Positions 22,440 through 59,847 of a stretch of 59,847 bases of DNA are shown piece after piece. Source of the DNA: a virus (taxonomy: Duplodnaviria; Caudoviricetes). The stretch spans positions 1 to 59,847 of IMG/VR virus record IMGVR_UViG_3300045117_000178; one strand, given 5' to 3'. Below the pieces are notes generated by a model. The model worked only from the letters and a program-made list of their open reading frames with translations, was not told the DNA's origin and searched no databases. Made by a program: the position numbers and the translations under genes. Every line of letters begins with the position of its first letter. Positions within the stretch are counted from its first letter, which is position 1.

Positions 22440-22443
22440 AGCC

Positions 22444-22878: not shown

Positions 22879-22920
22879 CAAACAAAGCCCGCCTGCGGGG
22901 GGCCGGTCCCGAGGCGGGCT
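22879..22920 (-). terminator. Canonical intrinsic terminator ending the virion operon
   Basis: AGCCCGCCT...AGGCGGGCT then TTGTTT on minus strand, ~60 nt past the 22983 stop. Confidence 0.6.
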
Positions 22921-22982
22921 CCTTGCTGTGGACCAGGAAGTGACCGGCTCAGCCGGCGCGGAGGTAACCAGGCCCAAGCAAA

Positions 22983-43676: not shown

Positions 43677-45082
43677 CTTCGATCTCCACCGGGTATGGCC
43701 CCCGAAGCGACGATGCCAGCTCCCAGCCCGGCCGCCCCGCCAGCGACCGTGCCGATCCTCGCGTTCCGAAGCGTTCGCACAGCCTCCCCTGGGACTTGGG
43801 ATACGGATTGGGCTACCTGTTTGCCTGGTACCCCGGCGGCGATTTGGTTGGTGACCTTCTTGCCCAAGCCGAGGGACGCCCCTCCAGCTAGCCCCGCCCC
43901 CAGTCCTCCTCCGATCAGCGCGCCCTTCAGAGCTCCGCTTCCCCGCTCACCGGGCTTGGCGGTCGCCGCACCGATACCCGCACCCAGAAGTCCCGGAACG
44001 ACGGCACCACCCAGGGCAGCTTTCGCGGCAAAGCCGAGAGCGACCTTCTCGATCTCGTCCTCGATGTCATCGAGGTCTCGAGCCGATGCCATCTTCACTG
44101 AGGGATTACTGATGGCTGGGGAAAGGGACTGTTCTATCTGACCCAGCTGGTTGTCGAACGATCGAAGCCCGCGCTGGAGCTGCTGACCCTGACCCATGGC
44201 CTGTAGCAGGGAGGTGTTGATCTCCTGGATCCGATTGTCGAGCACATCGACCGCGCCCTGGAGCTGACGGAGCTCGGTCGCGGTCTTGGAGAACTCGATG
44301 AAGGTCGAGATCACCCCATGCTCGGGGTTGGGCTCGTGCCCGACAGCGGCCGACGAGCGGAGGCTTTCGATGAACGCGCGCTTGGTCATGACGCCATGGT
44401 TCACGAGCTGATTGCGGACGGCCGAGATCCCGTCATAGAGGTCCTGCTCGTGCCCGAAGTGAGACCAGGCCGCGGCGATCTTGGACAGCGGCTCGCCCAC
44501 CAGCACGCACTTCTTGACCTCGCCGTAGAGGTCCTCTTTGAGCAGCTCCATGCGTGTGGTGAGGCTGGAGATCTTGGACATCACGTGCTCACGCGCGCCC
44601 ATCGCGGTCGTGCGGAGCGCATGGAGATCGGAGAGGCCGGTCGCGGTCGGACCTGCGCAGGCCTGCTTGCCGAAGATCTCTTCCTCCACGTTCCTCGCCT
44701 GCGGAGCAGACGGCGGAGCGGAGTAGTCATCGACGTGGTGGGTATCGGGCTGGCTGCCGTCGTTCATGCCCTTCAGAACGACCGAGGGGTCGGCCGGGCC
44801 GCCCTCGAACTCGATGTTGCGGACGCTGCCGCCTTTCTCCCACTCGTTCTGGAAGGCGGACTGGTTCGCGAACTCACAGACGCGGCGCGCGTGCTCGGGA
44901 CCGAGGTCTTGGTCTTTGATGACTTCGAGCACGGCGTCTGAGAGCGGGGTGCAGTTGCTGGAGTACAGCGCGGCTGCCTGCTTGCCGAGCAGCTGGAGAC
45001 GTCCGGGGTCCACTGGACGTGCACGAGCCTGCTCGATGATACCTTGCGGCACCGCTCCTAGCTCTCGATCCATGTGGGGCAT
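43673..45082 (-). CDS. KxA-rich putative virion protein with C-terminal Gly zippers
   Basis: KQA x2, KTA, KMA, DEIEKVA then GxxxG helices. Confidence 0.75.
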   Translation of the reverse strand: MPHMDRELGAVPQGIIEQARARPVDPGRLQLLGKQAAALYSSNCTPLSDAVLEVIKDQDLGPEHARRVCEFANQSAFQNEWEKGGSVRNIEFEGGPADPSVVLKGMNDGSQPDTHHVDDYSAPPSAPQARNVEEEIFGKQACAGPTATGLSDLHALRTTAMGAREHVMSKISSLTTRMELLKEDLYGEVKKCVLVGEPLSKIAAAWSHFGHEQDLYDGISAVRNQLVNHGVMTKRAFIESLRSSAAVGHEPNPEHGVISTFIEFSKTATELRQLQGAVDVLDNRIQEINTSLLQAMGQGQQLQRGLRSFDNQLGQIEQSLSPAISNPSVKMASARDLDDIEDEIEKVALGFAAKAALGGAVVPGLLGAGIGAATAKPGERGSGALKGALIGGGLGAGLAGGASLGLGKKVTNQIAAGVPGKQVAQSVSQVPGEAVRTLRNARIGTVAGGAAGLGAGIVASGAIPGGDRR

Positions 45083-45101
45083 CCTGTACCTCGTGGGCCT
45101 G

Positions 45102-45130
45102 ATTCTAGGCGGGAAGATCTATGAGGTCAA
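45102..45130 (-). promoter_or_regulatory. sigma70-like promoter heading the head-tail operon
   Basis: TTGACC-N17-TAGAAT. Confidence 0.7.
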
Positions 45131-45161
45131 CGGATCTTGCCGCAACTCCGAGCCCTTGCCC

Positions 45162-45191
45162 TTGCTTATGCGAGGGCAACTAAAGTAGAAT
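45162..45191 (+). promoter_or_regulatory. sigma70-like promoter, leaderless
   Basis: TTGCTT-N18-TAGAAT-N5-ATG. Confidence 0.55.
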
Positions 45192-45196
45192 GAGTT

Positions 45197-45592
45197 ATGA
45201 TCCAAAACAGAACTGTGAGCAATGCCAGGTCCTTGACCAGCAAGCGCAAGGATTGGGATGAGTACCTCAGAAAAAACAGGGAGACCAACCGAAGACTCAG
45301 AGCGAATCTTCGTGCTGGAGCCATAGCCGCCCTTGGGGGGAAATGTGTCCGTTGCGGCTTTGGTGACATCCGCGCCCTTCAAATCGATCACATAGATGGT
45401 GATGGGGCAAAGGATCGCAAGGACCGCAAGATGAATCAGTGGATGTTCTACAAGTCGATTGCGGAACATGGTGGTCAAGGGAAGTACCAGTGTCTTTGTG
45501 CAAACTGCAACCAGATCAAAAAAATCGAGATGCGTGAACTTCCTCCGGGTCGGCAGCGCACTGAGTGGTACTATACCCACATCAAACGGTAA
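45197..45592 (+). CDS. HNH endonuclease
   Basis: LGGKCVRCG...LQIDHI...LCANCN; lower GC. Confidence 0.8.
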   Translation: MIQNRTVSNARSLTSKRKDWDEYLRKNRETNRRLRANLRAGAIAALGGKCVRCGFGDIRALQIDHIDGDGAKDRKDRKMNQWMFYKSIAEHGGQGKYQCLCANCNQIKKIEMRELPPGRQRTEWYYTHIKR

Positions 45593-45608
45593 CACGTGGA
45601 GCTTGAGA

Positions 45609-46382
45609 ATGGGAAGTGCTGAAGATATCAAGCCCGTAGCAACGCTGGCAGACTACGTCGAGCCCCACGAAGCCGCCGAAATGCTGGGGGTGAAGCGCTC
45701 CACGATCTGGAACTACATCAAGCGCGGGCTCCTCAAAGGACGACACTTCAAGGGTCAGGGGAGGCGGTACTTCATACGCAAGATCGACGTCCAATCCATC
45801 GTGAGCGCGAAGGAAGAGATCGATACGAACGGCGGATCTCTCAAAGAGATCATCGCGGGCATCAGGATTCGTCTGCACAGCATCGAGTCCAGGATGGACT
45901 TCCTGATGGAGGCGTTGGGTCTCCAAGTGTCGGTTCTCAGGGACAAACCAGTCGAGGACTTGCTGGCGATCTACAATGACGCGGTTCTGGCTGGGTCAAC
46001 GAACCCGCGCTTCATCCCCGCGGTGCAGGTACGCAAGTGGGCCGATGTGCTCTGCCAGTTCACAGAGCTGGAATTCCAACGACTGGTCGCACCTACGCAG
46101 GACATCCACCCGTGGAAGCCGCTCTTCGGCCTCTGCGTCAACCTCCTCACGGACTTCCGCCGCCGCAAGCGCTTCGGGTCCGACGTCAACATGCAGCAGA
46201 CGTACCGGGTGCTGGACAAGGCACGCAAGCAGCTCAGCCGGGCAGTGATGGTGTTCGAGAGCTCCATGGCTTCGAACTTCGGACCCATCAAATCCGCACG
46301 CATCCACAAGATCCATAGCCACGCGGACTCTCTCGACCGCTACATTGACGCCGAAGTAGGCCTCCCAGAACCTCCAAACTGA
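45609..46382 (+). CDS. Excisionase/MerR-like HTH DNA-binding protein
   Basis: EAAEMLGVKRSTIWNYIKRGLL; start uncertain. Confidence 0.75.
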   Translation: MGSAEDIKPVATLADYVEPHEAAEMLGVKRSTIWNYIKRGLLKGRHFKGQGRRYFIRKIDVQSIVSAKEEIDTNGGSLKEIIAGIRIRLHSIESRMDFLMEALGLQVSVLRDKPVEDLLAIYNDAVLAGSTNPRFIPAVQVRKWADVLCQFTELEFQRLVAPTQDIHPWKPLFGLCVNLLTDFRRRKRFGSDVNMQQTYRVLDKARKQLSRAVMVFESSMASNFGPIKSARIHKIHSHADSLDRYIDAEVGLPEPPN

Positions 46383-46408
46383 AAACCGATCCTCCTTCTT
46401 GGGATAAG
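46382..46408 (+). promoter_or_regulatory. ATAAG-class promoter motif
   Basis: AAAA-N18-ATAAG. Confidence 0.75.
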
Positions 46409-46458
46409 GATCGTAAGCCCAGAAATGGGTAACGATCCTTTGGCCAAAGGAGGAAAGG

Positions 46459-46803
46459 ATGGCAACGAAGCCTGCAGCAGCAGCAAAGAAGCGCGAGATC
46501 GTCCACAACCAGGACGGTCTCTTCATCCCCACCGAACGCATCCCCGAGGTGCGGGCGGCGGTCGGGGAGAAGAACTTCGACAAGGCCGTGCGGGAGGCTG
46601 GCCTCGACCCGAAGGACCTCGCCAGCCCGGGGTTCGGCGACATCATCGTCGATACCTGGGGGTCGGGCTGGAAGGGGAAGGTCACGATCGTGGTGGCCGG
46701 CGTCGGGGCCGTGACGCTCACCCTCACCCTGGTGGAGGGCGGGTTCCGCCTCGCCGGCAGCGAGGGGCCGCTGTCCTGGCTCGCGCACAAGCTGGTCGGC
46801 TGA
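46459..46803 (+). CDS. Hypothetical protein with C-terminal TM helix
   Basis: AAGGAGG RBS; hydrophobic segment. Confidence 0.8.
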   Translation: MATKPAAAAKKREIVHNQDGLFIPTERIPEVRAAVGEKNFDKAVREAGLDPKDLASPGFGDIIVDTWGSGWKGKVTIVVAGVGAVTLTLTLVEGGFRLAGSEGPLSWLAHKLVG

Positions 46804-46837
46804 GCACAGCACCATCACAAGAGCAGCAAAGGAGGGC

Positions 46838-46877
46838 TCCCGGTAGATGAAAACCGGGAGTTCTTCTTAGCTATAAG
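46838..46877 (+). terminator. Hairpin + TTAGCT terminator overlapping next ATAAG promoter
   Basis: CTCCCGGT-N8-ACCGGGAG TTCTTCTTAGCT ATAAG; AAAA 19 nt upstream of ATAAG lies in the loop. Confidence 0.7.
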
Positions 46878-46897
46878 ATCAATAAGAAAGGAGGACC

Positions 46898-47089
46898 ATG
46901 AACAAAGAACAATTGATCCGTGCCATCAAAGCGCAGATCCGTGGTGCCACCGGTAGGGACTACATCGTTGATTGGGATGTGATGACACCAGCAGAGCTCT
47001 CCACCGTGCTCAGGCTCCTGAAGGACATCGAGGACGAGGCCAAGATGCGCGCCAAGCAGCGGGCGCGCAGGATGGGCATCCCGCTCTGA
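46898..47089 (+). CDS. Small hypothetical protein
   Basis: AGAAAGGAGG RBS. Confidence 0.8.
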   Translation: MNKEQLIRAIKAQIRGATGRDYIVDWDVMTPAELSTVLRLLKDIEDEAKMRAKQRARRMGIPL

Positions 47090-47090
47090 C

Positions 47091-47117
47091 GGAACGCAGG
47101 GGGGCGTTCCATTAGCT
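47091..47117 (+). terminator. Hairpin + TTAGCT terminator
   Basis: GGAACGC-N6-GCGTTCC ATTAGCT. Confidence 0.7.
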
Positions 47118-47119
47118 TG

Positions 47120-47147
47120 AAAACCGGACTGCCTTTCTTGGGATAAG
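47120..47147 (+). promoter_or_regulatory. ATAAG-class promoter motif
   Basis: AAAA-N19-ATAAG. Confidence 0.75.
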
Positions 47148-47173
47148 GATCGTAACCAAGAGAGGAGATTGTT

Positions 47174-47578
47174 ATGATCCATCGTCTTTGTGAGTGGCAC
47201 AACTACGACGGGGACATGCGGGGCTGGTCCCGCGGTGCCCATGGCTCGCCCGACATCGCGTGCAACGCCTGTAGGGCGGACGGGTCGTTCACCCCCGAGG
47301 AGGTGGGGGAGTACGAGCGGGAGGAGGAGGCGGAGATCGAGCGCCGCGCTCGCATCGTCACGGCCGGCAATGGGGCGCAGCTGCGCATCACCTGCCACAG
47401 CCCGCCGTTCAGTTCCGGCGGCGACTACAGGGTGATCCTGCTGTCCGGGGCGTGGCCGACCTCGGATGAGCTCATCAACCTCTGCAGCGCCGGCCACGCC
47501 CCCTTCGGGGGGTACGTGCGCATCGACGTTCACAAGGGCGAGCCAGTCGCCCACGTCTACGTGAACGGGACCGACTAG
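47174..47578 (+). CDS. Hypothetical protein
   Basis: GAGGAG RBS; N-terminal Cys/His cluster. Confidence 0.75.
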   Translation: MIHRLCEWHNYDGDMRGWSRGAHGSPDIACNACRADGSFTPEEVGEYEREEEAEIERRARIVTAGNGAQLRITCHSPPFSSGGDYRVILLSGAWPTSDELINLCSAGHAPFGGYVRIDVHKGEPVAHVYVNGTD

Positions 47579-47614
47579 GCTCCCTGGGTTCTCCAGGTCG
47601 AGTCTTCATTAGCT
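47578..47614 (+). terminator. Hairpin + TTAGCT terminator
   Basis: GGCTC-CCTGG-loop-CCAGG-TC-GAGTC then TTCATTAGCT. Confidence 0.55.
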
Positions 47615-49463
47615 AGCGCTTGCGCTTGGGGCGGAAGTCCTCGCCCGAGTCCTTCAGCGGCGCGATGATGTCCGGACGTGGGTACTTGATCATGGATGCC
47701 AGGAAGCAGTACACGATCGAGTGGAAGGTGTCGTCCGTGGTGCCGGGCGAGTGATTGTAGATCGTCATGCGCAGCTGCTTGCTGTACTCGCTGAAGATGT
47801 TGAGGATGTCTTGTCCGTAGGGCTCGAAGAAGTCATCCCAGTTCGGCAGCGCGATCTGCTTGCGGATCATCGCGTTGAACACGTCGCTCATGACCTCTGT
47901 GCGGTGGCACATGAACCGACGTAGCTGCGGCTGCCAGAAGATCTTGCCCTTCTTCTGGTTGGGGTTGTACTGGTACTTGAGCACCTTCTGCGGCCCGAAC
48001 GCGCGGACAAGGTGGTCATTGCGATCGAAGCCACCGCCGTAGTCGCAGCCGGTGATCTGGACGTTGTACCGCGCGAGGATGTTGCAGATGCGGTCGAGCT
48101 GCCGCACAGGCTCCAGGTCCTCACCCACGAAACGGTGTACCCAGAAGACGGTGAAGGCACCAGTCCCGAAGTACGTGCCCAGAGAGATCACGGTGTACGC
48201 ATTCTCTCCCGTCCCCCAGTCGATGCCGGCGAAGATGTCCTGGGTGTGACCGAACTTCATGTAGTACTCGAAGTCGCTGATCCGAATGTCCTCCTTGCAG
48301 CACGCCTTCAGCTGACCTCGAGTGATGGGACGAGTACCGCTGTCGTAGGAGAGGCCGAGGACCTCGTTGTTGAACTTCTGCCTCGGGTAGCGCTTCTGTT
48401 TCTCGAGCAGCCCCTTCCAGCCGTCAGGCGTCTTGACCACCCATGGCACCAGCAGCTGGCTGATGTGGTAGCCCTCGAACGTCACCTTCTCCTTGTTGCT
48501 GTCGGTCGCGGGATTCATCGCAGACCACACAGCGTCAGGGTGGTAGATTTCGATCGGCTGGTGGCAACGGTCGCAGATCAGTCCCTCGGCCCCGATGTTG
48601 TCCTCACCCAAGATGTTCCAATGCCAGGTGCTCTTGTCGCCGGGCACACCATGGTGCTCACAGGGGACGACCCACTCGTTCTGCGTGGAGAAGTTCGCCC
48701 AGTAGTACTCGATGGTGTTGTCTAGGCTCTTGGGCGTGCCGGAGTAGATGAAGATCTTCCAGTCGCTGTGGCTGGCGCACTCCTCGATGACGGGGATGTT
48801 GTCGACCAGGATGTCCTGGATCTCGTCGATGTCTATCAGATCCGTGGGGATACCGCGGACGCGGTCGGCCGTGAGGTAGGCGTAGCGAAGACGGATCTGA
48901 GAGTAGTTGATGAACTTCTTGTGGAAGACCGCATTCGTGAGCTTGGTGTTGGTGTACGCCTGAACGACCGGGCTCATGCTGATCGGGTCAGCGAGACGAT
49001 CGTTGGAGAACACCTTGGTCTGCTCGGCCGAGGGGCTGACGTACAGGCTCTTGAAGTAGTTGATGAGGCAGCTGTAGGCGAGCAGCTTGTTGCCGAGCGT
49101 CGTGCTCTTCTCGACCTGGCGGCCGGCCTTCAGCAGCGTCTTCTTCTCACCCGTGTCGTAGACTCGGCGGAGGTACGGGCGCTCTGCGAACGAGAAGTTG
49201 TCGACCTTGCCCTTGTCCGCAATGCGAATGGCGGTCTCTGAGAACTCGGACGGGGAGACGTTGTAGACGTAGTCGATCTTGGCTTCCGACTCGTCGACGT
49301 CTTCTGGCTCTTCATCGAAGCCGTAGTCCCTGGGCTCACCCTCTTCATCGAGATCGTAGAACGGCTCAGTGTAGATCTTGCCGTCCACAAGCTGCTGTGC
49401 GAGAGCGATCGGAACATCGATCTCTGCGCGGCGTGCTCGAACTCGACGAAGGTCAACAAGCAA
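47613..49463 (-). CDS. Terminase large subunit (lambda GpA-like)
   Basis: KAGRQVEKST Walker A, IDIDEIQD Walker B, SGTPK, C..H/CDRC Zn site, AGIDWG nuclease, DDTFH; start uncertain. Confidence 0.9.
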   Translation of the reverse strand: MLVDLRRVRARRAEIDVPIALAQQLVDGKIYTEPFYDLDEEGEPRDYGFDEEPEDVDESEAKIDYVYNVSPSEFSETAIRIADKGKVDNFSFAERPYLRRVYDTGEKKTLLKAGRQVEKSTTLGNKLLAYSCLINYFKSLYVSPSAEQTKVFSNDRLADPISMSPVVQAYTNTKLTNAVFHKKFINYSQIRLRYAYLTADRVRGIPTDLIDIDEIQDILVDNIPVIEECASHSDWKIFIYSGTPKSLDNTIEYYWANFSTQNEWVVPCEHHGVPGDKSTWHWNILGEDNIGAEGLICDRCHQPIEIYHPDAVWSAMNPATDSNKEKVTFEGYHISQLLVPWVVKTPDGWKGLLEKQKRYPRQKFNNEVLGLSYDSGTRPITRGQLKACCKEDIRISDFEYYMKFGHTQDIFAGIDWGTGENAYTVISLGTYFGTGAFTVFWVHRFVGEDLEPVRQLDRICNILARYNVQITGCDYGGGFDRNDHLVRAFGPQKVLKYQYNPNQKKGKIFWQPQLRRFMCHRTEVMSDVFNAMIRKQIALPNWDDFFEPYGQDILNIFSEYSKQLRMTIYNHSPGTTDDTFHSIVYCFLASMIKYPRPDIIAPLKDSGEDFRPKRKR

Positions 49464-49487
49464 AACGAGAACCCCACTTGTTATAAG
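49462..49487 (+). promoter_or_regulatory. ATAAG-class promoter motif
   Basis: AAAA-N17-ATAAG. Confidence 0.65.
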
Positions 49488-49491
49488 AGAC

Positions 49492-49868
49492 TTGTAGCGG
49501 AAGCGACGTAAGTTTCTTTCGCTGCGCGCGCAACCTCCGTGTGGTGGTAGGAGGTAGGGTCAATCAGGCCCTCGCTCTCGGTATTTCTAGTTGGGCTTCG
49601 GCCCTTCATCCGAATCGCCTTGAGCATCCGGCCACCAAAACGTGGGAGGCGTTTCCTCCAAGTGTCTCGAGCTTCTATTGCTCCCCCTCGATCAACCAAC
49701 ACCCTAATAGGGACACGTTGGGTGGAGCGTAGTAGCAGAGGGACGCTTTGTCCCCTGGGTGACTAAGCGCCGCGTAGATCCGGCGCGGATCCCAGCCCGC
49801 CACAGCCGGGTAATGCTACTGCGCACCATTCAACGCGGATTGGCGGCTTGGCCGCCAATCATTTAGCT
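49492..49868 (+). ncRNA. Candidate highly structured ncRNA (~375 nt)
   Basis: ATAAG to GATTGGCGGC-TTG-GCCGCCAATC-ATTTAGCT; many hairpins incl. UUCG; no RBS-led ORF. Confidence 0.6.
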
Positions 49869-50290
49869 AGCCCCTCTCCGACCTTCCGATCCAGCACCTC
49901 CGCGAACCTGCGGAAGGTGTCCTCATTCGGAGGCAGAGGACGCCTGTTGATGGCCGGCACCGTCACACAGTAGCTGTTGACCTCGGGGATGAACTCCACC
50001 AGAGGCTTGACCGTGGGGTACGACTCCTCGGCCGCGGCCAGGACGTCGAGACCGAAGCTCCCACTGCCCCAGTACCCGTCCTCGACCGTCGGACCCTTCC
50101 ACACGTGGTAGAGTAGGTCTCCCTCCTTCACCAGGTACTTCACGATCACGTGGTCGGTCTCCAGCAGTGGAGCGGCCACCACAACCGCCTTCTCCACGTC
50201 CGAGACCTTGGCGTCGCCCGCCTGGACACCCTTCATGACCTGCGCGCGGTCCTCGTCGCTGATGAATGCTGGCTTCGGTAGATCGTTCAT
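49859..50290 (-). CDS. Hypothetical protein
   Basis: 143 aa, AGGAGG RBS. Confidence 0.75.
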   Translation of the reverse strand: MNDLPKPAFISDEDRAQVMKGVQAGDAKVSDVEKAVVVAAPLLETDHVIVKYLVKEGDLLYHVWKGPTVEDGYWGSGSFGLDVLAAAEESYPTVKPLVEFIPEVNSYCVTVPAINRRPLPPNEDTFRRFAEVLDRKVGEGLAK

Positions 50291-50299
50291 CCGGCCCTC

Positions 50300-51178
50300 C
50301 TAGAAGTCTTCGTCATCGACGTCAGTGCCCTCGCCCGACTTGCTGAAGTTGCCCTGCGGTGTGAGCTGCTTGATATCGATGACCTTGGCATGATCCATCT
50401 TCATACGGAACTGCTGGAACTGCCTCAACACGTCCTGTAGCGCGACGTCGCTCTGACGAAGGATGTTGTTCGCCTTCTCCAGAGTCGTGATGCAGTTCTT
50501 GAGCGCCATGCTCGTGTCGACCGTGCAACGCTGGTTCTCGAGCTCGAGCGCGTGCTTGACAGCGATTTGCCCGATGCGCGCGGCTGCCTCGACCATGTTG
50601 AAGTTGGCCGGCGGCGCGCTGATGCCTACCACCCACGGTAGGTGCTTGGGTGCGAGGTCGGAAGGAGTCAGCAGGCCCTGGACGAGGACGTTCGAGCCCG
50701 CGTGTCCATCGAAGTACTCCAGCCACTGACCCGAGGTCAGCAGGCCCCGATTCCAGAAGTAGTGCCGGTACGCCGTCACCCCGTCCCTGGTGAGAATGAT
50801 CGTGGTGTACTTTCTTAGCTTCTTGGCCACGACCGCCGGGTGCATGGTCGAGAGCAGAAGCGGCCGGAGCTTCTCCTGCAGGTAGGAATCGCGAAGGATG
50901 GCCACCGCCTCTCGCGCACTGGGCGTCTGCGCCCACATGTCGAAGATCTTGTGAGCCTTCAACCAGCGCCTGGTGTCGAGGTCCAACGGGTCGTCAGGAC
51001 GAAATGGGTCCGGGCGCGGTTCCATCTCGTCATGAACATGACGGATGTACCCCAGGTTGAGGCCGTCCAGACCCAGCTGGTCCAGCTGGTCCATGATCCG
51101 CTGTTCGTCGAAAGCCGCCTCCCGCGAGATCAGGAACTTGATGTAGAACTCGCAGGGGCTCCTGACAGGAAGTCTCAT
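50300..51178 (-). CDS. Hypothetical protein
   Basis: 292 aa, ATGA-coupled. Confidence 0.75.
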   Translation of the reverse strand: MRLPVRSPCEFYIKFLISREAAFDEQRIMDQLDQLGLDGLNLGYIRHVHDEMEPRPDPFRPDDPLDLDTRRWLKAHKIFDMWAQTPSAREAVAILRDSYLQEKLRPLLLSTMHPAVVAKKLRKYTTIILTRDGVTAYRHYFWNRGLLTSGQWLEYFDGHAGSNVLVQGLLTPSDLAPKHLPWVVGISAPPANFNMVEAAARIGQIAVKHALELENQRCTVDTSMALKNCITTLEKANNILRQSDVALQDVLRQFQQFRMKMDHAKVIDIKQLTPQGNFSKSGEGTDVDDEDF

Positions 51179-53184
51179 GCTTGGGGATGCTGCACAAGCT
51201 CCCGTAGACCGTCGATGACCCTGTCGAGGTGGCGTGTCACGCGCTCGAGCGCTCCGGTGTCGACGTTCGACAGGCCGAGACGAGAGGCGATCAGCAGCTC
51301 GCTGAGCTTGCTGAGGGTGTCCTCGAACTCCGGCAAGTACGACACGAACGTCGAGACGTTCTCGGGATTGAGGAAGCCGATGGAAAGGACTCGATCCACC
51401 GAGAGCGGATCATCCAGAGACGCTGCCTCCTTCAGCATCAGGACGTTGATCTTCGGCAGGCGGTTGATGTACTTCTCCGCGCGCTTCTCGGCCGCAGCGT
51501 ACTTCTCGGCAGCGAGAGTGACCGGCCGCACTCCCTCTATCGAGCACCACCTGCTCAGCTTCTTCGCGGACGCCAGCTTGGTCTTGGCGAACTCGGGGTC
51601 CACACCCAGAACGGCGAGGTTGAACACCGCCTGGTCATGGTCGATGAACTTCACGGGTAGCACGGCGGCCAGCTTCTCCACGGGCTGGCCGCGCATGCTG
51701 TACGTCCCACCCGACTCCCACATGATCTCCACCTGATGGGGGAGCTTGCGCGCGGCCGCGGTCTTGGAGAACTCGTCGGGGGTGGAGGCGAGATCGGTCA
51801 TCTCCCGCATCGGGAGCCATCCGCAGTCCGCGGGGACGGCGAACACCATCTCGGACATGGGGGAGATCTCCTGGATGCCAGGAACCAGCTGGACCTGGAC
51901 CTCACTGCCCATGATCGTCTGCGCGTGGTAGGTGTCCTTGCCATCCGGCCCTTGGACCACCCCCATGATGGTCATCGGGACCAGGGCCACGGCGCTGCCG
52001 CCGCGAGAGTAGTAGAAGCACCCGAACCCCTTTGGCGGCTCATCGATGATGTTCGTGCCCTTGCCCACGAGACTGCCAGCGACATCGTCCTGGAAGGCCG
52101 ACTCGCTGCCGTTGGAGAAGATCGAGGTCGAGAGGTTGTGGCCGTCGAGGTCGATGCAGCTCGGGAACACCCAGCCCATGAGCTCCTTGCCGTCCATGGT
52201 CTTGACCTTGTACTCGCCGAACTCGTCCACGACCTTGACGGTCGCATCGTCGAGCGTGTCCTTGACCGCGGCGTTGGTGGAGACCGTGACCGTCCCGTTC
52301 CTCTCGACCTTGTTGACGATGTCCGACCCCAGCATCTCGGTGGCCTCCGGCCGACCGACGACTTCCTCCTGTGGCAGGAGGGTCTCGGGGTTGGCGGTCT
52401 TGATCAGGAAGCCGCCCGCCGTCTTCACGATCTGGATGACCTTCGGCGGGATCGCGTGGAGGGCCTCCTTCATCATGTCCTGCCCAGTGGACGACGGGGT
52501 GTGCCGCATACCGGCTAGCTTCGACAGCCAGCTGAGGGTTGCCCGGTTGTCGAGTAGTGCATGCCGCAGATCTCTGTCTTCGTTCATCAGCTGCTCGACA
52601 GCATCGACCTGCGCCTGCTTCACGCTCTCCCTGATGACGTCCATCAGGAACTCCTGACGGACAGCGGAGGTCTTGGGCGTCTCGAGCTGACCGACACGGG
52701 CGTTGCCGAGCCCGAACCCACCCGAACGGTAGGGCGGGTAGAGGATGTTCAGCATGTCCTGGTCGCCCGGCCTCTCGGCCGCGGCTTCGAACACCTGGGG
52801 CCTGAACATCGCGCGCTTGAGGCGCTCCTCCGTCAGCGGCTGGGCCTTCCCGTTCTGGATGAAGGTGTCCAGCGGGCTCATCCGGCCCTCGTTGACGATG
52901 ACCGGGATCATCGCCATGTTCATGCCCTGAGCGCCGGAGCTCACGCTGTACTCGAGGGGGTTGACCGCGAGCTTGTTGGTGATCTCGACGGCCCCGATGG
53001 CGTACCGACGCTCGGGGTCCAGCTCGTTGATGACGATCTTTGGATCGAAGTCCCCCACGTACGAGGCCTGGCGGTAGAGCTCGTTCATGATCTCCGACTG
53101 CCAGTCGTCCGGGTTCTCGGAGAGACGGGTGAAGGCCGCGGCGAACTTCTGAAGCCCCTTCGGATTGTCCAGGAAAAGGTCCAT
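51175..53184 (-). CDS. Large KxA-containing putative head protein
   Basis: 669 aa; KFA, KQA, KLA, KTA, KEA motifs. Confidence 0.75.
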   Translation of the reverse strand: MDLFLDNPKGLQKFAAAFTRLSENPDDWQSEIMNELYRQASYVGDFDPKIVINELDPERRYAIGAVEITNKLAVNPLEYSVSSGAQGMNMAMIPVIVNEGRMSPLDTFIQNGKAQPLTEERLKRAMFRPQVFEAAAERPGDQDMLNILYPPYRSGGFGLGNARVGQLETPKTSAVRQEFLMDVIRESVKQAQVDAVEQLMNEDRDLRHALLDNRATLSWLSKLAGMRHTPSSTGQDMMKEALHAIPPKVIQIVKTAGGFLIKTANPETLLPQEEVVGRPEATEMLGSDIVNKVERNGTVTVSTNAAVKDTLDDATVKVVDEFGEYKVKTMDGKELMGWVFPSCIDLDGHNLSTSIFSNGSESAFQDDVAGSLVGKGTNIIDEPPKGFGCFYYSRGGSAVALVPMTIMGVVQGPDGKDTYHAQTIMGSEVQVQLVPGIQEISPMSEMVFAVPADCGWLPMREMTDLASTPDEFSKTAAARKLPHQVEIMWESGGTYSMRGQPVEKLAAVLPVKFIDHDQAVFNLAVLGVDPEFAKTKLASAKKLSRWCSIEGVRPVTLAAEKYAAAEKRAEKYINRLPKINVLMLKEAASLDDPLSVDRVLSIGFLNPENVSTFVSYLPEFEDTLSKLSELLIASRLGLSNVDTGALERVTRHLDRVIDGLRELVQHPQA

Positions 53185-53204
53185 CTTCTTCGTCTCCTAC
53201 GTGA

Positions 53205-53234
53205 AGGCTACCTCTGATCGAGGCTCCACCGCAA
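53205..53234 (-). promoter_or_regulatory. sigma70-like promoter
   Basis: TTGCGG-N18-TAGCCT. Confidence 0.45.
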
Positions 53235-53242
53235 GTGGAGAT

Positions 53243-53479
53243 CTACGGCAACTCCGGTTGAACGTGGCTGTAGACCGACTCCGCGACGGCCTTCGCAATC
53301 ACGTGGGCTGTGCCCTCATCCATGTAGATGTCCCCCACTGTGGGGATCATCTGGATCGTCGTCGTCCCGTCCGGCTGCGGGATCTCTTTGGTGGCGACTG
53401 AGACCGTCACGCCCCTGGCTATGGGGTTCGCTCTCAGCTTGCTGAAGATCATGTCCTCCAGTGCCTTGGCGGAGATCAT
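53243..53479 (-). CDS. Small baseplate-associated hypothetical protein
   Basis: ATGA overlap with spike gene. Confidence 0.65.
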   Translation of the reverse strand: MISAKALEDMIFSKLRANPIARGVTVSVATKEIPQPDGTTTIQMIPTVGDIYMDEGTAHVIAKAVAESVYSHVQPELP

Positions 53480-54699
53480 GGCTTCGGCACCATGAACTTG
53501 GGGTTGAGGCAGGCCGCGAGCTGTCCAGCCTGGGTAGGCGGTGCCTTCGGTGCTTCGTGCGAGTGCAACCCTAGCCACTTCAACAGCGCGCCAGAAGACA
53601 GGATCGGTTCGAGTGGACCGTTTCCGAGCTTGAGGATCGCGGCATCGATGGTCTTGACGCCAGTGATGACCTCCATGCTGACCGCGGCCTTGAACGAGTG
53701 TGTCCCCATCACCTCCTCGTTCTTGGCCCCAGAGACCTTGATCTCCTGCGTGCCCGTGACGGTCAACTTGTCTGACCCCATCACGGTCGTCTCGCGGCCG
53801 CCCGTGTACTTCTCGGTCAGCTTGCCCCCAGACACGATGTCGATGTCACCACTCTTCTTGATCCGAAGCGTGTAGTTCTCCCCGGAAGCGGAGCCGTCGT
53901 CGACCTTCACGTTCTTGGGTGCGATCACCAGCTCGTAGCGGATGTCGTCGCTCACGTGCCCGAAGCGGACCTGGACGTCGGCCTTGTCGTTCTGCGCCTT
54001 GTCCCGGACGGTCAGACGGTAGATGACAGGGGCTTCACCCGCAGGGTCTCCCTCTTGACGATCCACCCGCCAGAAGACCGCTCCTCCTGGGGTGCTCATC
54101 TCGAAGTTCTCGCAGAACTGGCGCAGATAGTTGAGGACCGGTATGAACATCGTCTGGCAGGTGGGCGTGGTGCCGATCTGGATCACTCCACCTCGACGCA
54201 AGTAGATGAAGTTGCCGTCATGCCCAACGAGTGCTATGTCCCCTGGATTCAGATCTGGCCTGTTGCTGCGAAACGACCCTCCAGCCTTCTTGGGCGCGCT
54301 CTCTCCCGTGGACTGCGCGGTGGAGGGTTTTGGTAGATCTTCCTCGTTCTCCACGCCCGGCTGATCGGCCTTGTCTGTGAGGTCGTCCTGTTGTGCCTTC
54401 TCCGATTTCGGCACGCCGACGAAGCCCAACACGAAGGGCGATTGGGAGTCCGAGGGCGACGTGAAGTAGCAGACGGTGCCGACCTCCGGCATGACGTAGA
54501 TGCCGGCACCGTTCGTCGCCTCCAGGTACGGACACATGAGCGGTACCTTTGGAACGAACTTGCCGCTGTACTCGGAGATGATGTCGACCGTCCAGTTCTT
54601 CATGTCGACATCGGCGATGACCCCCTTCTCCGCCCAGGTCGGTACCTGGGCGTTCACCCTTTGCGAGGGGGAGTTGGACGTGCCCGAAGGGGTTGTCAC
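53476..54699 (-). CDS. Baseplate central spike (gp5/GpV-like)
   Basis: OB-fold GIYVMPEVG...PFVLGF, beta-helix repeats, C-terminal HSH metal-binding motif. Confidence 0.8.
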   Translation of the reverse strand: MTTPSGTSNSPSQRVNAQVPTWAEKGVIADVDMKNWTVDIISEYSGKFVPKVPLMCPYLEATNGAGIYVMPEVGTVCYFTSPSDSQSPFVLGFVGVPKSEKAQQDDLTDKADQPGVENEEDLPKPSTAQSTGESAPKKAGGSFRSNRPDLNPGDIALVGHDGNFIYLRRGGVIQIGTTPTCQTMFIPVLNYLRQFCENFEMSTPGGAVFWRVDRQEGDPAGEAPVIYRLTVRDKAQNDKADVQVRFGHVSDDIRYELVIAPKNVKVDDGSASGENYTLRIKKSGDIDIVSGGKLTEKYTGGRETTVMGSDKLTVTGTQEIKVSGAKNEEVMGTHSFKAAVSMEVITGVKTIDAAILKLGNGPLEPILSSGALLKWLGLHSHEAPKAPPTQAGQLAACLNPKFMVPKP

Positions 54700-54708
54700 G
54701 TCGAGATC

Positions 54709-55179
54709 CTAGTAGCCGGCGTAGACAGGCTGGGGCTTCGGGCGAGAGAATGCCTTGTGCAGTAGTGCCCCAGCTCCCAGCAGCGCGCCACCAGCAAGCC
54801 CGGCTTTGCCGAGCGGGGTCTTGGCGACAGACTTCAGGCCTCCCAGGATGCCTCCGCCGCGCGTGACGCTCTTGCCGCCGATGTTCTCGATCGTCGGGAT
54901 CTTGCCGCCCTCGAAGACGTTCTTTGTGTGCTGCCAGAGCGTGGTGCCGGCAGGTGCTCCCAGGCGTTGCGCCATGGGTCCGGACCCGCCGATCGCCTGA
55001 CCGAGGTGTCCAAGGCCCTCGCCCATGAACTGTCGCCCCTTGGTGAACATGCCAGGGGCCGCCGGGGCGTCTGCGGGGATCGGTGGGGCCTCGGCGTAGG
55101 CCATCTTCCTCAACTCGGTCAGCTCCTCGATGAAGGCCGACCCCAGCCTGGTCATGTAGATGTTGTCAGAGGTGTTCAT
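54709..55179 (-). CDS. AFIEEL..LRKMA-tagged Gly-rich protein with C-terminal TM
   Basis: Tag variant; AGLAGGALLGAGALL. Confidence 0.7.
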   Translation of the reverse strand: MNTSDNIYMTRLGSAFIEELTELRKMAYAEAPPIPADAPAAPGMFTKGRQFMGEGLGHLGQAIGGSGPMAQRLGAPAGTTLWQHTKNVFEGGKIPTIENIGGKSVTRGGGILGGLKSVAKTPLGKAGLAGGALLGAGALLHKAFSRPKPQPVYAGY

Positions 55180-55188
55180 CTTGATCTC

Positions 55189-58100
55189 CTAGTGCGGGTG
55201 CTTCAATCCGAACTCTGCCCCGTGAGCGATCCCCGGTATCGGATGAGTCCCGTGGATGTTTGTTCCCCATCCTTTGTTGGCAGCCTCGATGATCGTTTCG
55301 TGCAAGCGCTCGTGGTTCAATCTTGCCATCCAGTCAGTCTGGATGTCGAGTGGCAGTTTCTGCACGCCTTTGAGGACCGGCGCGTGTTGAATCGGCCGTA
55401 GTCTCTCGGCATTGAGCCGCTTGTTGACGGCTTGGATCTGGGAGGTCGGGGCGAAATCGCCACGCAGGAACTCCTTGTTGTCCCCAGGTTCCTCAACACG
55501 GGTCAGGTTCGTCATGCTCTTGACGATGGTCTCGATGTTACGGCGACGGATGCCCTCGCTCTTGTAGAGATCGTAGAGCTGACTGGAGAGGTAGCCCTGG
55601 ACCTTGCTCAGACCAGCCAACGGCAGGAGCTCGTGGGGGTTGATGGGGCCGTGTGACACTGGGTCTCCCTTCTGCACGGCCATGCCCACGGACAGCTTCT
55701 TGGGCTTGTCACCGACGAAGACGATGGGCTCCCCTCGATCCTGGGGAACGTAGTGGCGCACGCCTTCGACGAAGACGTTCGTTCCTCCAGCCGGGTCCTT
55801 CGAGATCTTCGTGACCTTGCCTTCCATCGTGCTCAGGGTGGCCGACTTTGGGATCTTCTCGTAGAGCTGTACCAGCTGCTTCACGCGGTTGAACTGGTCG
55901 GTCAGCTGAGCTCGTGCCTTGGCCGCCTCTCCCACAGGCGCGATGCCGCCCTCATGGAAGGTCCGCATGGACAGCTGAGTCGCTCGCTCACCGATGGATT
56001 GGGCGCTGATGACCCCGACGTTCTTGCCGATGGCAGGGTGCTGTCCGTTCTCGTCCAAGCCGTAGCACTTGGCGCAGATCCCAGTCCCGTGCTCACACCG
56101 CAGAGGCGATCTCACAATGATCTTGCCGATGCGCGCCTTGTTGTTGCGCAGGCTATCTCGAACCTCCGGCGTGATGAGAGTGCCGGCTGGGAACGTCTTC
56201 TTGCCGATCTTGACATCGACCGCCAGGTGGCGGTCGAGGATGTCCTTCTCCTCTACGGGCAGCGAGATGCCCTTCTTCGTACCACAATCGTGGACTCCGA
56301 CGATGTTGTTGATCACGGAGTTCATGACCTGCTTGGTGAGATAGCCGGGCTCTTCAACCGACTGTACCTTCTGGATGACGCCCTTCCTGGCCCCGGACAT
56401 CGAGGTCCAGTAGTCTCCGGTGTCCAGGCCCTCGGAGTAGGACTTCCTGACGGGCGACGGGATCACCTCACCTTTGGCATTCATGATCAACATGGGAGCC
56501 ATGGTGATCTGCCTGTAGGCGTCGATGCTGGGTTTCACGCCGGCCTTCATCATGTTGAATAGGGCAGTCGGCTTCTTCGAGTGCTGGGTGTCGACGACGT
56601 GCAACATCGCTTGCGTCGCGCCGTCGTAGACCTGGACGACCTTCTTCTCCTTGTCCACCTGCTTGCCGGGCCCCTTCATGATCTCGGCGACCTTGGCATC
56701 AGCCATCCTCAAGATCTTGTCTCTCGTGACTTTGTCGGCCCGCAGATCGTCCAGTCCGAGAGAGAGCGCCTTGTTTGTGGCGAACTGGTTGCCCAGGTCC
56801 TTGAGCTTGTTCGAGACCACACCGAAGTCGTTCTTGTGCTCTTTGGCCACGACCGTCAGGAGTGCTGCCTGTCCCTTGCCATCGAGAACGAAGGTTGGAT
56901 CCAGCACCTTCTTCCGAAGAGGCTCCGGCAGGACTTCAGCAATGAGAGCTCTGCCAACCGTCGTTCTGCCCTGCCCGATCTTCACCTCGTGATTGAAGTT
57001 GATCTTCCCCTGGTGCGCGGCCTGCGCGGCAGTTGCTAGGTCCTTGAAGGACTCATTGGAACGCCCGGTGACCTGTGCCAGCGTGAAGAGGCCCAGCTGG
57101 CTCTCGTGCGTGGGTCGGTACATGATCGAACCGCTGGCAGGGCTGAAGAGATTGCGCGAAGGGAGCATGTCGTACGCTTCCTTCACGGCCTGGGTGGTCA
57201 ACGGGACGAACGCGCTCATGGTGTCGCCGTCGAAGTCGGCATTGTAGCCGGACGTCACCAGCGGGTGGATCTTGATGGCTTTGCCACTGATGAGCACGGG
57301 CTTGAACGCTTGCACGCCGTAGCGATGCAGCACGGGGTCGCGCTTCATCAGCAGCGGTCGGTTGTCGACCACGCGCTCGAGAGCCCTGGAAGCAAGGGGG
57401 TCGTTGTTCTTGATGGCCAGCTGCGCCTGGAGCGGCGTCATGTCTGCCAGGCCGCGCAGCTCACGCACCACGAACGGCTTGTAGATCTCCATGGCCGCCG
57501 TCCGCGGGATGCCGACCTGGTCCAGCCCGAGCTCGGGCTCTGGGATGATGGTCGAGCGCATGCTGAGGTCCTGCTTGCGCTTGATCAGTTTCTCCTGGAA
57601 GAACCCCTCCTTCGGCTTGCCCTCCTTCTCTCCCTCCTTCACGCGCTTTCCACGGATGATGTCGAGCACGCCACGGAACTTCTGGTTGAGGTGGCCGCCG
57701 AGACCGGCAAGCGACCGCATGCCGTCGTAGATGGCCGACCGTCGGTCATCCTTCATGTGGTCGGGCAGAAGTGGACTGGCCTCGTTCATCTTCTTCACGA
57801 GCAGGCCGACGCCCTTGTACATGTGGTTGAGGTCGTCCTCGTTCAGGCTTCCGTTGGGCATGACCGACACCGGGCGTAGAGCCGGTGGGATCACCGGGAT
57901 GTGCTGCTGCATGTAGGCTTCATGCGGCGTCATCCCGAGGTTGCTCAGGACCGACAGATACTTGACCTTCTTGTTCGTGGCATCGAGCTTCGGACCCTTC
58001 AACGCGGGGTCAGCTAGGCGGGCCTGAGCCGCCCTCAGCTCTTTCTGCACGTCGATCTTGCCCAATAGGTGGGAGATCGCCAGGCCGCTGCGCAGGCCTT

Positions 58101-59847
58101 CCTCGGGCTTGACGAACGCGCCGGTCTTCGGGTGGATGGCCTTCTCACCCGACATGACGGCGTCGAAGTCCTTCTGTTTGAGCCCCGTGAGGCTGGTGAT
58201 GGCCTTCTCGAAGATCGGGTTCGGCATGGGCTCGGGCAGCTTGATGTGGGCCCACTTCGTGCCGTCGACACCACCAGTCACCTTCGGGTCGAACAGGCCG
58301 TGCTCTTCCGGCTTCAGGTTCTTCCCGATCACCATCCGTCCGGGGTCCTTGATCGCGCCGTTGCTCATCTCCAGGACGTTCTTGTCCGTGAGCGGCATGA
58401 GGTTGATGGTGTTGCCCTGCTTGACGGCGTTCACTCCGATGGCTTTGAGGTAGCCCAGGAACTTGTTGTAGGCGAACGACGGTTTGGGAGGAGGAATCGG
58501 ATCTCCGGCCTGGATGGCAGACCACAGTTCGTCGTTGGTCTCGGCGTTGCTCTTGTAGGTCTGCATCTCGCGGATGTTGGCTTTCGCCCCGTGCGCCAAC
58601 ATCGCGTACAGGCCCAGTGCGTCGATCGCTTGCGCTCCGTGGGGACCACCACCTTTCGGGATGTGGTTCACGTCGTAGGAGTAGCCGGGACCACCGGCAC
58701 GTGCGACCAGCTTCTTCTCCACCTGGTGCTTGAGCTTGTGAATGTAGTGCGGCCCGACCAGAGCCTCTCCCATAGGCTTGCCGGAGGTCGGGTCGAACAG
58801 CAGCTCCTTGTCTGACAGACCGTGGGCCTTGAGGTCTTTCTGCACGCGATCAAGCCAGTCCTCGGTGCCGTCGAAGTTCTGGATCTGGTAGGGCTTGCCC
58901 GTCTTCTCGGCGATCTTGGCGGCCGCGGTCTCCAGCACCTGGCCAAGGTTGAGACGGCCGGGGATGCCGGCAGGGTTCAGCGCGATGTCGATGTGACGTC
59001 CGTCCGAAGTCTTCGGCATCTCGTGATCGGGCACGATGCGGGTGATGATGCCCTTGTTCCCATGCCGTCCGGTGATCTTGTCACCGATCTCCGCCGCCTC
59101 GTTCGTACGGACGTGGACCTCGACACGCCCACCGTGCTTGACAATGTTCGTGACAATGCCCGGATGATCGGCTTCCCACCGGATGGACGCATCGCTGTAC
59201 GGCTGCACGAGCGACTTGTGCATGCGCGACAGCATCCTCGACTCGTCGTCAGTGATGTCCTTCTTCTTCAAGGCCGCAACGAGGAGGTCGCCCGGCTTGA
59301 TCTCCGTTCCGGGCTTGATCACGCCGTCCTCGTCCAGCTTGTCCATGTGCCCCTTCGTGATCGTGCTTCCGAAGTAGGAGGCGAACTTCTTCCGGTCCTG
59401 CACGTGGTCCGGGCTGAGATCGAGACCCTTCCGGTACATGTGCTCGGACGTCAGTTTGCGCGAGGCGCTGTCGCTGATGACGACGCCGTCCTCGAAGTTG
59501 TACCCATGGAACGGGACGAAGCCGGCGCGCAGGTTGGTGCCCAGAGCCAGACTACCGTTGCGAGTGAAGTTGGTGTCTGCCACCACCTGGTTCTCACGCA
59601 CGCGATCGCCAGGCTTCACAAGCGGCGCGCTGTGCATGAAGCTCTTCTCATCGTTGAGCGGGAAGTGTTCGTACAGCTGCATCTCATGCTTCTTGCCATC
59701 ATCTCCCTGGATGTGGATGTGATCTTTGCCGACCTTCAGCACCTCGCCGGACACCGGAGCTAGATGAGAGCTGCTGCGTCCGATGAGCTCGTTCAGAGTC
59801 GCGGCCGTGGGGGGGGGAAACCGCGTGTGGGAGGGGGGGACATCCCC
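55189..59847 (-). CDS. Phage multisubunit RNA polymerase, beta/beta' fusion (5' truncated)
   Basis: beta: GYNFEDG, GDKITGRHGNKG, NPAGIPGRLNLGQ, KLKH; beta': PVIPP.LRP, RDPVLHR, YNADFDGD, GARKG, AQSIGE..TQLSMRTFH; frame stays open upstream of 59754. Confidence 0.95.
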   Translation of the reverse strand, partial: GDVPPSHTRFPPPTAATLNELIGRSSSHLAPVSGEVLKVGKDHIHIQGDDGKKHEMQLYEHFPLNDEKSFMHSAPLVKPGDRVRENQVVADTNFTRNGSLALGTNLRAGFVPFHGYNFEDGVVISDSASRKLTSEHMYRKGLDLSPDHVQDRKKFASYFGSTITKGHMDKLDEDGVIKPGTEIKPGDLLVAALKKKDITDDESRMLSRMHKSLVQPYSDASIRWEADHPGIVTNIVKHGGRVEVHVRTNEAAEIGDKITGRHGNKGIITRIVPDHEMPKTSDGRHIDIALNPAGIPGRLNLGQVLETAAAKIAEKTGKPYQIQNFDGTEDWLDRVQKDLKAHGLSDKELLFDPTSGKPMGEALVGPHYIHKLKHQVEKKLVARAGGPGYSYDVNHIPKGGGPHGAQAIDALGLYAMLAHGAKANIREMQTYKSNAETNDELWSAIQAGDPIPPPKPSFAYNKFLGYLKAIGVNAVKQGNTINLMPLTDKNVLEMSNGAIKDPGRMVIGKNLKPEEHGLFDPKVTGGVDGTKWAHIKLPEPMPNPIFEKAITSLTGLKQKDFDAVMSGEKAIHPKTGAFVKPEEGLRSGLAISHLLGKIDVQKELRAAQARLADPALKGPKLDATNKKVKYLSVLSNLGMTPHEAYMQQHIPVIPPALRPVSVMPNGSLNEDDLNHMYKGVGLLVKKMNEASPLLPDHMKDDRRSAIYDGMRSLAGLGGHLNQKFRGVLDIIRGKRVKEGEKEGKPKEGFFQEKLIKRKQDLSMRSTIIPEPELGLDQVGIPRTAAMEIYKPFVVRELRGLADMTPLQAQLAIKNNDPLASRALERVVDNRPLLMKRDPVLHRYGVQAFKPVLISGKAIKIHPLVTSGYNADFDGDTMSAFVPLTTQAVKEAYDMLPSRNLFSPASGSIMYRPTHESQLGLFTLAQVTGRSNESFKDLATAAQAAHQGKINFNHEVKIGQGRTTVGRALIAEVLPEPLRKKVLDPTFVLDGKGQAALLTVVAKEHKNDFGVVSNKLKDLGNQFATNKALSLGLDDLRADKVTRDKILRMADAKVAEIMKGPGKQVDKEKKVVQVYDGATQAMLHVVDTQHSKKPTALFNMMKAGVKPSIDAYRQITMAPMLIMNAKGEVIPSPVRKSYSEGLDTGDYWTSMSGARKGVIQKVQSVEEPGYLTKQVMNSVINNIVGVHDCGTKKGISLPVEEKDILDRHLAVDVKIGKKTFPAGTLITPEVRDSLRNNKARIGKIIVRSPLRCEHGTGICAKCYGLDENGQHPAIGKNVGVISAQSIGERATQLSMRTFHEGGIAPVGEAAKARAQLTDQFNRVKQLVQLYEKIPKSATLSTMEGKVTKISKDPAGGTNVFVEGVRHYVPQDRGEPIVFVGDKPKKLSVGMAVQKGDPVSHGPINPHELLPLAGLSKVQGYLSSQLYDLYKSEGIRRRNIETIVKSMTNLTRVEEPGDNKEFLRGDFAPTSQIQAVNKRLNAERLRPIQHAPVLKGVQKLPLDIQTDWMARLNHERLHETIIEAANKGWGTNIHGTHPIPGIAHGAEFGLKHPH

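Follow-up and report, generated by a model that had tools for sequence, protein, structure and literature searches.

At one end of a viral contig of 59.8 kb (IMG/VR record IMGVR_UViG_3300045117_000178, positions 1 to 59,847; "the window" below means this whole stretch of 59,847 nucleotides (nt), estimated to be 33% complete) lies the 3' 4.66 kb of an rpoB-rpoC-like gene where the beta and the beta' subunit of a bacterial-type RNA polymerase (RNAP) make up a single chain. Specifically, an open reading frame (ORF) of 1552 codons runs along the minus strand at 55189-59847 with no internal stop, ends in a stop codon at 55189-55191 and is still open at the contig end, so that it represents the 3' three-quarters of a gene of about 6.2 kb. 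The original prediction, made from the letters of the window alone, had described a streamlined beta/beta' fusion within the virion module, packaged in the particle and reading a code of short motifs. Our analysis confirms the fusion and supports the wider interpretation in part. We think it probable, with room for serious doubt, that the gene encodes the RNAP core of a lytic lake-water phage of about 180 kb, a single chain that would work without alpha and omega as the sole RNAP of the phage and would be packaged in the virion and ejected with the DNA.

A beta/beta' fusion lacking the N-terminal zinc ribbon

The part of beta that lies in the window (58411-59847, minus strand) comprises its C-terminal 479 residues, with the Rpb2_6/double-psi beta-barrel (DPBB) region and the beta C-terminal clamp segment, and contains the DPBB motif GDKITGRHGNKG with the active-site lysines (59050-59085, minus strand). 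The beta' part (55192-58410, minus strand) is complete and 1073 residues long. It carries the catalytic NADFDGD with the Mg-binding aspartates at amino acids (aa) 869-875 (57223-57243, minus strand), exactly where the original prediction had placed it, as well as the second zinc site and the trigger loop, both of which had been described as retained and both of which we located in the ORF. The first ligand of the zinc site is Cys1188 in HDCGTKKG (56284-56286), and the other three are Cys1251, Cys1258 and Cys1261 in RCEHGTGICAKCYG (56065-56097); the trigger-loop segment AQSIGERATQLSMRTFHEGG (55945-56004), like them on the minus strand, has no lineage-specific insertion in the alignment. Pfam searches with the window ORF matched Rpb2_6 (PF00562) at aa 42-387 (E 1.7e-62) and, above cut-offs, Rpb1_2 at aa 823-894 and Rpb1_5 at aa 1140-1456, while Rpb1_1 and Rpb1_3 scored under their curated cut-offs. 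In a PDB sequence search, bacterial beta' chains align to aa 589-1531 (E about 1e-103). An AlphaFold2 model of aa 380-1552, with a 64-row family alignment as input, has a predicted local distance difference test score (pLDDT) of 89.4 and a predicted template modelling (TM) score of 0.85; 49 of the 50 top Foldseek matches of the beta' model have TM-scores of 0.74-0.81 to bacterial beta', and one has 0.68. In this model the beta' part folds like bacterial beta', and, judged by motifs and predicted fold together, both DPBBs are intact, as are NADFDGD, the trigger loop and the second zinc site.

To compare architectures, we combined 18 phage rows and 22 cellular rpoB+rpoC pairs (concatenated; 13 phyla) in one alignment. 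The junction falls at N479|T480 (58408-58413, minus strand), inside the interval of about 58400-58480 in which beta had been expected to run into beta' without a stop, and there is no linker: the phage beta tail (...PSFAYNKFLGYLKAIGVNAVKQGN; ...AIGVNAVKQGN) is the counterpart of the cellular beta C-terminus, and directly after it comes TINLMPLTDKNVLEMSNG, matching the cellular beta' segment FDxIxIxLASPExI. Further along, where cellular beta' reads GLFCxxIFGPxKDYECxCGKYK...CxxCGVEVT...RRERMGHI, the phage rows read GLFDPKVTGG--VDGTKWAHI. About 32 residues containing the CxC...CxxC ribbon are thus cleanly deleted from the phage beta' N-terminus and no cysteine is left there, bearing out the earlier claim that the beta' N-terminal Zn-binding clamp is absent. 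In place of the ribbon stands the loop GLFDPKVTGGVDGTKWAHI (aa 517-535; 58243-58299, minus strand), which is conserved in the family of related enzymes described below. Apart from the zinc ribbon, no block of at least 20 residues occurs in 70% or more of the cellular rows yet is missing in the phage rows, and the phages Arash and Vibrio D69 share its deletion. The phage enzyme is also shorter than any of the 22 cellular pairs in the comparison, mainly for want of their lineage-specific inserts.

The enzyme is poor in cysteine as well, with 4 in 2072 aa (the full length, see below) against 10-24 in the 22 cellular pairs. The only cysteines of the window ORF are C1188, C1251, C1258 and C1261. 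These four belong to the second zinc site and are invariant or nearly so in two alignments, and family ORFs of about 2070 aa mostly have exactly four, every one a zinc ligand. The cysteine content of the 28 other window proteins is ordinary (0.74%).

Recovery of the missing 5' end had been proposed as a check, and a full-length protein of 2072 aa (P0003) provides it. P0003 is identical to the window ORF save for the first 15 residues of the ORF and adds 520 N-terminal residues; in its numbering beta spans about 1-999 and beta' 1000-2072, and beta residues 24-988 align to the 1100-aa beta chain 8syi_C (E 4.5e-82). The window at 59803-59847, which disagrees with P0003, is G-rich (GTGGGGGGGGGAAACC...GGGAGGGGGGG). 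Contigs from three other lake runs, at least two of them independent, match the window up to 59813 and then share a different sequence, which, reverse-complemented and translated by hand, gives PLVQTLLS, as in P0003. Because these contigs continue in the same way as P0003, the last 35-45 nt or so of the window (from about 59803-59813) are probably a poly-G sequencing or assembly artefact, the gene being whole in nature. Near-identical DNA to 45000-54999 of the window was found in lake-water metagenome runs dated 2018, 2019 and 2025, and the phage population therefore persists in that kind of habitat; no RNA runs are listed among the runs with near-identical DNA.

A large family of fused phage enzymes

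The fused enzyme is not rare: a very large metagenomic family has it as its usual layout. We sampled this family in a protein collection (the best 120 clusters listed, 49-100% identical over the junction region) and in IMG/VR, where the best 80 of 379 related stretches, 41-84% identical, make up the family loci referred to below. PF00562 and PF00623 occur in one protein in 117 of the 120 clusters, and a single fused frame covers the query in all 80 loci. Most clusters (84) are 2037-2078 aa long; another 26 measure 2391-2571 aa, mostly with intein or homing-endonuclease domains, and 10 are shorter, mostly from short contigs. Complete relatives are 178-199 kb in size, two of them with direct terminal repeats.

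The family also speaks to whether the enzyme is active. It could be a decayed or structural relic that polymerises no RNA, given that it has lost the zinc ribbon, a universally conserved bacterial module, and that alpha and omega are undetectable. However, DFDGD is kept in all 69 intein-free family rows; the beta lysine motif, the second-site cysteines and the trigger loop are, like it, conserved across these rows down to 41% identity; and the frame is open in every one of the best 80 loci. We regard a relic as very improbable. The ribbon loss itself is family-wide, the beta' N-terminal region being free of cysteine in 66 of the 69 rows. King et al. are said to have found in 2004 that Escherichia coli RNAP deleted for the beta' zinc ribbon still elongates. 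In three loci, L038 (aa ~1409), L098 and L100 (both aa ~1390), the catalytic motif reads (N/G)ADFDGN and is followed by Cys and a long insert, an intein at the third aspartate; these ORFs are 2559-2594 aa long and 54-65% identical to the window enzyme. The catalytic motif in the window is intact and intein-free.

We then placed the enzyme in a tree with cellular and phage RNAPs (LG+G4 'quick', 40 rows by 1950 columns, unrooted, no archaeal outgroup). A branch with a support of 100 in the Shimodaira-Hasegawa-like approximate likelihood ratio test (SH-aLRT) sets off all 22 cellular rows, and the 16 fused rows form one group (SH-aLRT 100) that is sister to Arash plus D69 (100). The stem between the phage and cellular groups measures about 1.5 changes per column. 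The fused family thus nests in none of the 13 sampled bacterial phyla as a recent join, and because every cellular row is on one side of a long stem, the enzyme does not look like a chimeric join nested in a bacterial clade, which had been named as the outcome that would count against the original prediction. In a scan of 185,579 species genomes, the best 80 loci are all cellular rpoBC with 27-31% identity, with no close cellular relative or prophage copy among them.

These results bear on a simpler account, in which a cellular rpoB-rpoC stretch was recently captured from a host or was mis-assembled onto phage DNA. The bacterial fold and domain order would fit such an account, as would the attachment of the phage stem beside Actinomycetota (SH-aLRT 93 in the unrooted tree), with attachment to Bacillota not rejected at a P value of 0.085 in the approximately unbiased test (p-AU). 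Against it stand the top identity of 31% among the cellular loci of the scan, the clean separation and long stem in the tree, the same gene with the same neighbours in 80 viral loci, and the recurrence of the gene on contigs from three more runs, two or more of which are independent. We give this account almost no credence. An old origin within Bacteria followed by fast divergence is a different matter and is possible, since the tree is unrooted, the stem lies beside Actinomycetota and Bacillota has a p-AU of 0.085. Separately, the rpoB-rpoC of a metagenome-assembled genome labelled Hyphomicrobiales (L107) groups with Bacteroidota (SH-aLRT 100), and this contig is probably mis-binned.

The nearest known enzymes are those of Arash (Gp206 and Gp216) and of Vibrio phages D69, D181 and D148, in which, as here, beta and beta' are fused without a linker, the ribbon is missing from the same position and there are few cysteines. 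Their identity to the window enzyme is only 32-36%, and their beta' is cut after the active-site module, the remainder being encoded by a second gene (606-609 aa) that is found 2-9 genes downstream. The window enzyme, in contrast, is one chain, its frame continuing through Rpb1_5 to the stop at 55189 where the Arash type has a separate gene for the beta' C-terminus. The accessible text of the Arash paper labels Gp206 and Gp216 simply beta and beta' and describes neither a fusion nor a missing ribbon (PMC10585845).

The lineage has probably been sighted before, as the fused phages probably overlap the published mReC phages. In the accessible part of their study, Weinheimer and Aylward (2020) report metagenomic tailed-phage contigs with deep-branching beta/beta' that contain NADFDGD and with RNAP genes located by particle genes (PMC7481178). 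The window enzyme resembles these in its strong beta and beta' matches (Pfam here, COG in that paper), its NADxDGD and its position apart from cellular RNAP, and two of the three named mReC examples come from sample 3300017989, a number adjacent to those of samples that yielded our family loci (PMC7481178). The mReC markers capsid PF07068 (8 of 97 contigs) and terminase PF03237 (17 of 97) are unmatched here (PMC7481178): the window terminase matches PF05876 only, and the capsid protein matches no Pfam family. The main text of that paper uses "fused" for crAssphage only (PMC7481178).

Other phage RNAPs are more distant. The phiKZ/AR9-type enzymes are two-barrel RNAPs without alpha, one set of which is packaged in the virion, and the jumbo-phage reviews, in the text accessible, describe split enzymes only (PMC7824862, PMC7598289), in agreement with what the original prediction had stated on phiKZ. 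There, beta and beta' are each divided among 2-3 polypeptides, exist in two paralogous sets per genome and have diverged much further in sequence. The window enzyme is a single chain of a single set, and its alignment with bacterial beta and beta' extends over its length. The crAss-like phi14:2 gp66 and the tape-measure-fused RNAP of Thermus phage P23-45 have both barrels in one virion-delivered polypeptide but are, as far as the accessible sources describe them, minimal enzymes that can hardly be recognised from their sequence; the core encoded in the window, by contrast, is nearly complete and of bacterial type. Among cells, the RpoB-RpoC of Helicobacteraceae and Wolbachia is a single polypeptide as here (PMC7483510, accessible text), so the cellular fusions were correctly cited in the original prediction. 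Those fusions are cellular and work with alpha and omega, and we set them apart by description. In the literature outside subscription journals and supplements, we found no description of a single-chain, zinc-ribbon-less bacterial-type phage beta-beta' enzyme.

Virion genes around the polymerase and the case for packaging

The location of the RNAP gene within the virion module, as originally predicted, is well supported because its neighbours include spike-like, terminase, protease-like and capsid genes and, in relatives, the portal gene. A Gly-rich ORF of 156 aa (54709-55179, minus strand) lies 9 nt after the RNAP stop and is followed, after another 9 nt, by a gene for a spike-like protein of 407 aa (53476-54699, minus strand); 74 of the 80 family loci have a homologue of this protein just downstream of their RNAP gene. 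Sequence searches with the 407-aa protein gave no match, and it was identified by fold only: the best matches of its model (pLDDT 77.5) are central spikes, VgrG and gpV of contractile systems. Because the TM-scores on the query are low (0.17-0.31) despite a probability of 1.00 for the top ten matches, its spike-like nature is only moderately supported. Across the family, the spike-like gene is followed by a gene for a conserved protein of 669 aa (51175-53184, minus strand), which has no PHROG, Pfam or Atlas match, no tblastn match in phages and no similarity to the Arash portal. Beyond these neighbours, the order in the window is terminase large subunit (47613-49463, minus strand), protease-like protein and major capsid protein (36301-37428, minus strand). 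The terminase and the capsid protein have their nearest isolate relatives in Arash and the D69 group, and the capsid protein has relatives among isolates only in Arash, Vibrio D69/D181/D148 and Bacillus phage G. On the other side of the RNAP gene, the portal lies just upstream in Arash itself; a homologue of the Arash portal is present in 56 of the 80 family loci and is upstream of the RNAP gene in those inspected. In two close relatives (L005, 2578-7452, 1624 aa; L004, 469-3750, 1093 aa), this upstream portal gene is interrupted by intein/LAGLIDADG/helix-turn-helix (HTH) domains, of which the HTH produced a spurious sigma-region-4 match.

Packaging of the enzyme in the virion seems to us fairly probable, judging from synteny, cysteine depletion and Arash virion proteomics. 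The gene sits among particle-building genes, so its product is probably inside the particle. In the accessible data on gradient-purified Arash virions, Gp206 has 128 unique peptides and 3516 spectra, the most of all proteins, and Gp216 has 1210 spectra where the portal has 877 (PMC10585845).

The same data can be read in another way, in which the enzyme is a non-packaged intracellular RNAP like T7 RNAP or the phiKZ non-virion RNAP, host RNAP serves early transcription and that of the RNAP gene itself, the fused enzyme takes over for middle and late genes, and the Arash signal is carry-over. The Arash "virion" list of 116 proteins, in the accessible data, includes ribonucleotide reductases, helicases and ligases (PMC10585845), and because such metabolic enzymes are on it, carry-over of abundant proteins is possible. 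The presence of sigma-family genes in relatives fits a non-packaged enzyme too, as do the TGAAAAC-like and TATAAG-like elements of the ATAAG promoters described below, which loosely recall sigma-dependent bipartite promoters. However, the RNAP gene is co-oriented with its neighbours, with 9-nt gaps, and stands between portal and spike genes family-wide, an odd place for a gene needed before the late phase; the Arash RNAP spectra exceed those of both portal and capsid protein after gradient purification (PMC10585845, accessible data); and free cysteines have been purged. We judge a purely intracellular role unlikely, though well worth keeping in mind.

We next consider the partners of the fused enzyme. 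Each of five records, including complete Arash, complete D69 and an 85%-complete relative, has one PF00623 locus, and neither alpha (PF01000) nor omega (PF01192) was found in any of the five records of relatives, with all 14 control genomes positive. The fused enzyme may use host alpha. Sigma-70-family matches were obtained in Arash, in D69 and in the complete relatives G003 (E 4.5e-19), G005 and G007. When the window was searched by tblastn with five sigma-like ORFs of relatives, the best E was 0.14, and TIGR02937 gave no match. A weak TIGR02937 match in a further relative (G001) was rejected as a sigma factor because it falls on the HTH of an intein that interrupts the portal gene.

Several of these points weigh against a packaged, self-contained enzyme. 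The breadth of the Arash protein list, just mentioned, is one. The virion evidence comes from Arash, whose enzyme is 36% identical and not fully fused. The absence of alpha and omega was scored with Pfam models in relatives, the genome of the window being 33% present. No sigma-like gene was found in the window, itself a 33% fragment, and a homologue of the G003 sigma-like ORF could be detected in none of five other relatives; the sigma-70-family matches do not represent one conserved orthologue.

With these points taken into account, packaging and ejection of a lone single-chain RNAP core is still the reading we prefer. On this model, the covalent beta-beta' join would stand in for the assembly platform of alpha dimer and omega, and the fused enzyme would be the only RNAP of the phage. 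It would be made late, together with the particle proteins, be packaged and ejected with the DNA, and then start transcription independently of the host. Promoter choice might come from phage sigma-like factors, such as some relatives and Arash encode, or from another factor. A more far-reaching version, in which a self-sufficient one-chain core with no alpha, omega, zinc ribbon or free cysteines is packaged near the portal, is ejected with the DNA and constitutes a third class of virion multisubunit-type RNAP beside the phiKZ type and the crAss/P23-45 type, we hold more tentatively and lean slightly against.

The alpha dimer is considered the assembly platform that all multisubunit RNAPs share, and a natural one-chain, apparently alpha-free core would, if confirmed, show that a covalent join can replace it. 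The enzyme would also be a handy single-gene RNAP of 230 kDa for structural and biotechnological work, and the zinc ribbon, a module with links to the RNA-exit channel, to sigma contacts and to termination, has been lost family-wide in what amounts to a natural experiment. If packaging is real, environmental phages of about 180 kb would, in their hundreds, be independent of host RNAP in a way not yet described, and a very large, globally distributed phage lineage would be free of host RNAP from the first minute. The cultured relatives Arash and Vibrio D69, D148 and D181 make packaging directly testable. The find is tempered by the probable sighting of the lineage as mReC in 2020 and by the truncation of the window copy.

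ATAAG and TTAGCT motifs in the window

The original prediction had the enzyme reading an ATAAG/TTAGCT code. The ATAAG half of this code stands as a promoter-like motif; TTAGCT is a 3' flank of hairpins and looks like part of a terminator rather than of a promoter. ATAAG occurs 26 times in the window, and 20 of these copies are within the 15% that is intergenic, most of them on the same strand as a Shine-Dalgarno sequence with its start codon and 25-45 nt upstream of it. The sites are often accompanied by ..TGAAAAC.. about 17-20 nt upstream of ..cttGGgATAAGgatc.. and by ..cttGGg directly before. Examples are at 17823, 19054, 19351, 22104, 22435, 46404, 46873 and 47143 on the plus strand and at 2079, 4141 and 17554 on the minus strand, and similar sites are present in the relatives L004 and L005. 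ATAAG is a real promoter-like motif, and its sites are plausible targets of the fused RNAP. The genes they serve are small and mostly on the plus strand; no such site stands ahead of the particle genes or the RNAP gene.

TTAGCT occurs 17 times, with 12 copies intergenic, typically after a GC-rich hairpin. The 40 nt upstream of TTAGCT have a mean fold energy of -16.7 kcal/mol, compared with -9.6 at 1000 random sites, and 7 of the 17 sites lie beyond the 5th percentile of the controls. The motif is found 0-9 nt after the hairpins, often as hairpin-TTCT(TC)-TTAGCT, at gene ends and with no long T run. Examples on the plus strand are at 6106, 12810, 18188, 20431, 22716, 46867, 47112, 47609 and 49863, with one on the minus strand at 2715; the site at 46867 abuts the next ATAAG promoter. 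Because it lies 3' of strong hairpins, TTAGCT (hairpin-TTCTTAGCT) looks like the flank of a terminator or processing site.

Two further regions of the window carry these motifs, and the window contains no tRNAs. At 49483-49863 on the plus strand, by the terminase gene, an ATAAG site and a hairpin-TTAGCT bracket about 380 nt in which no ORF was called; this region may encode a small RNA or a small unannotated gene. A stretch of 1.8 kb at 22366-24172 has no convincing ORF in a composition-based gene call; associated with it are an ATAAG site on the plus strand, accompanied by a start codon near 22143/22460, and an inverted ATAAG pair at 23158/23176.

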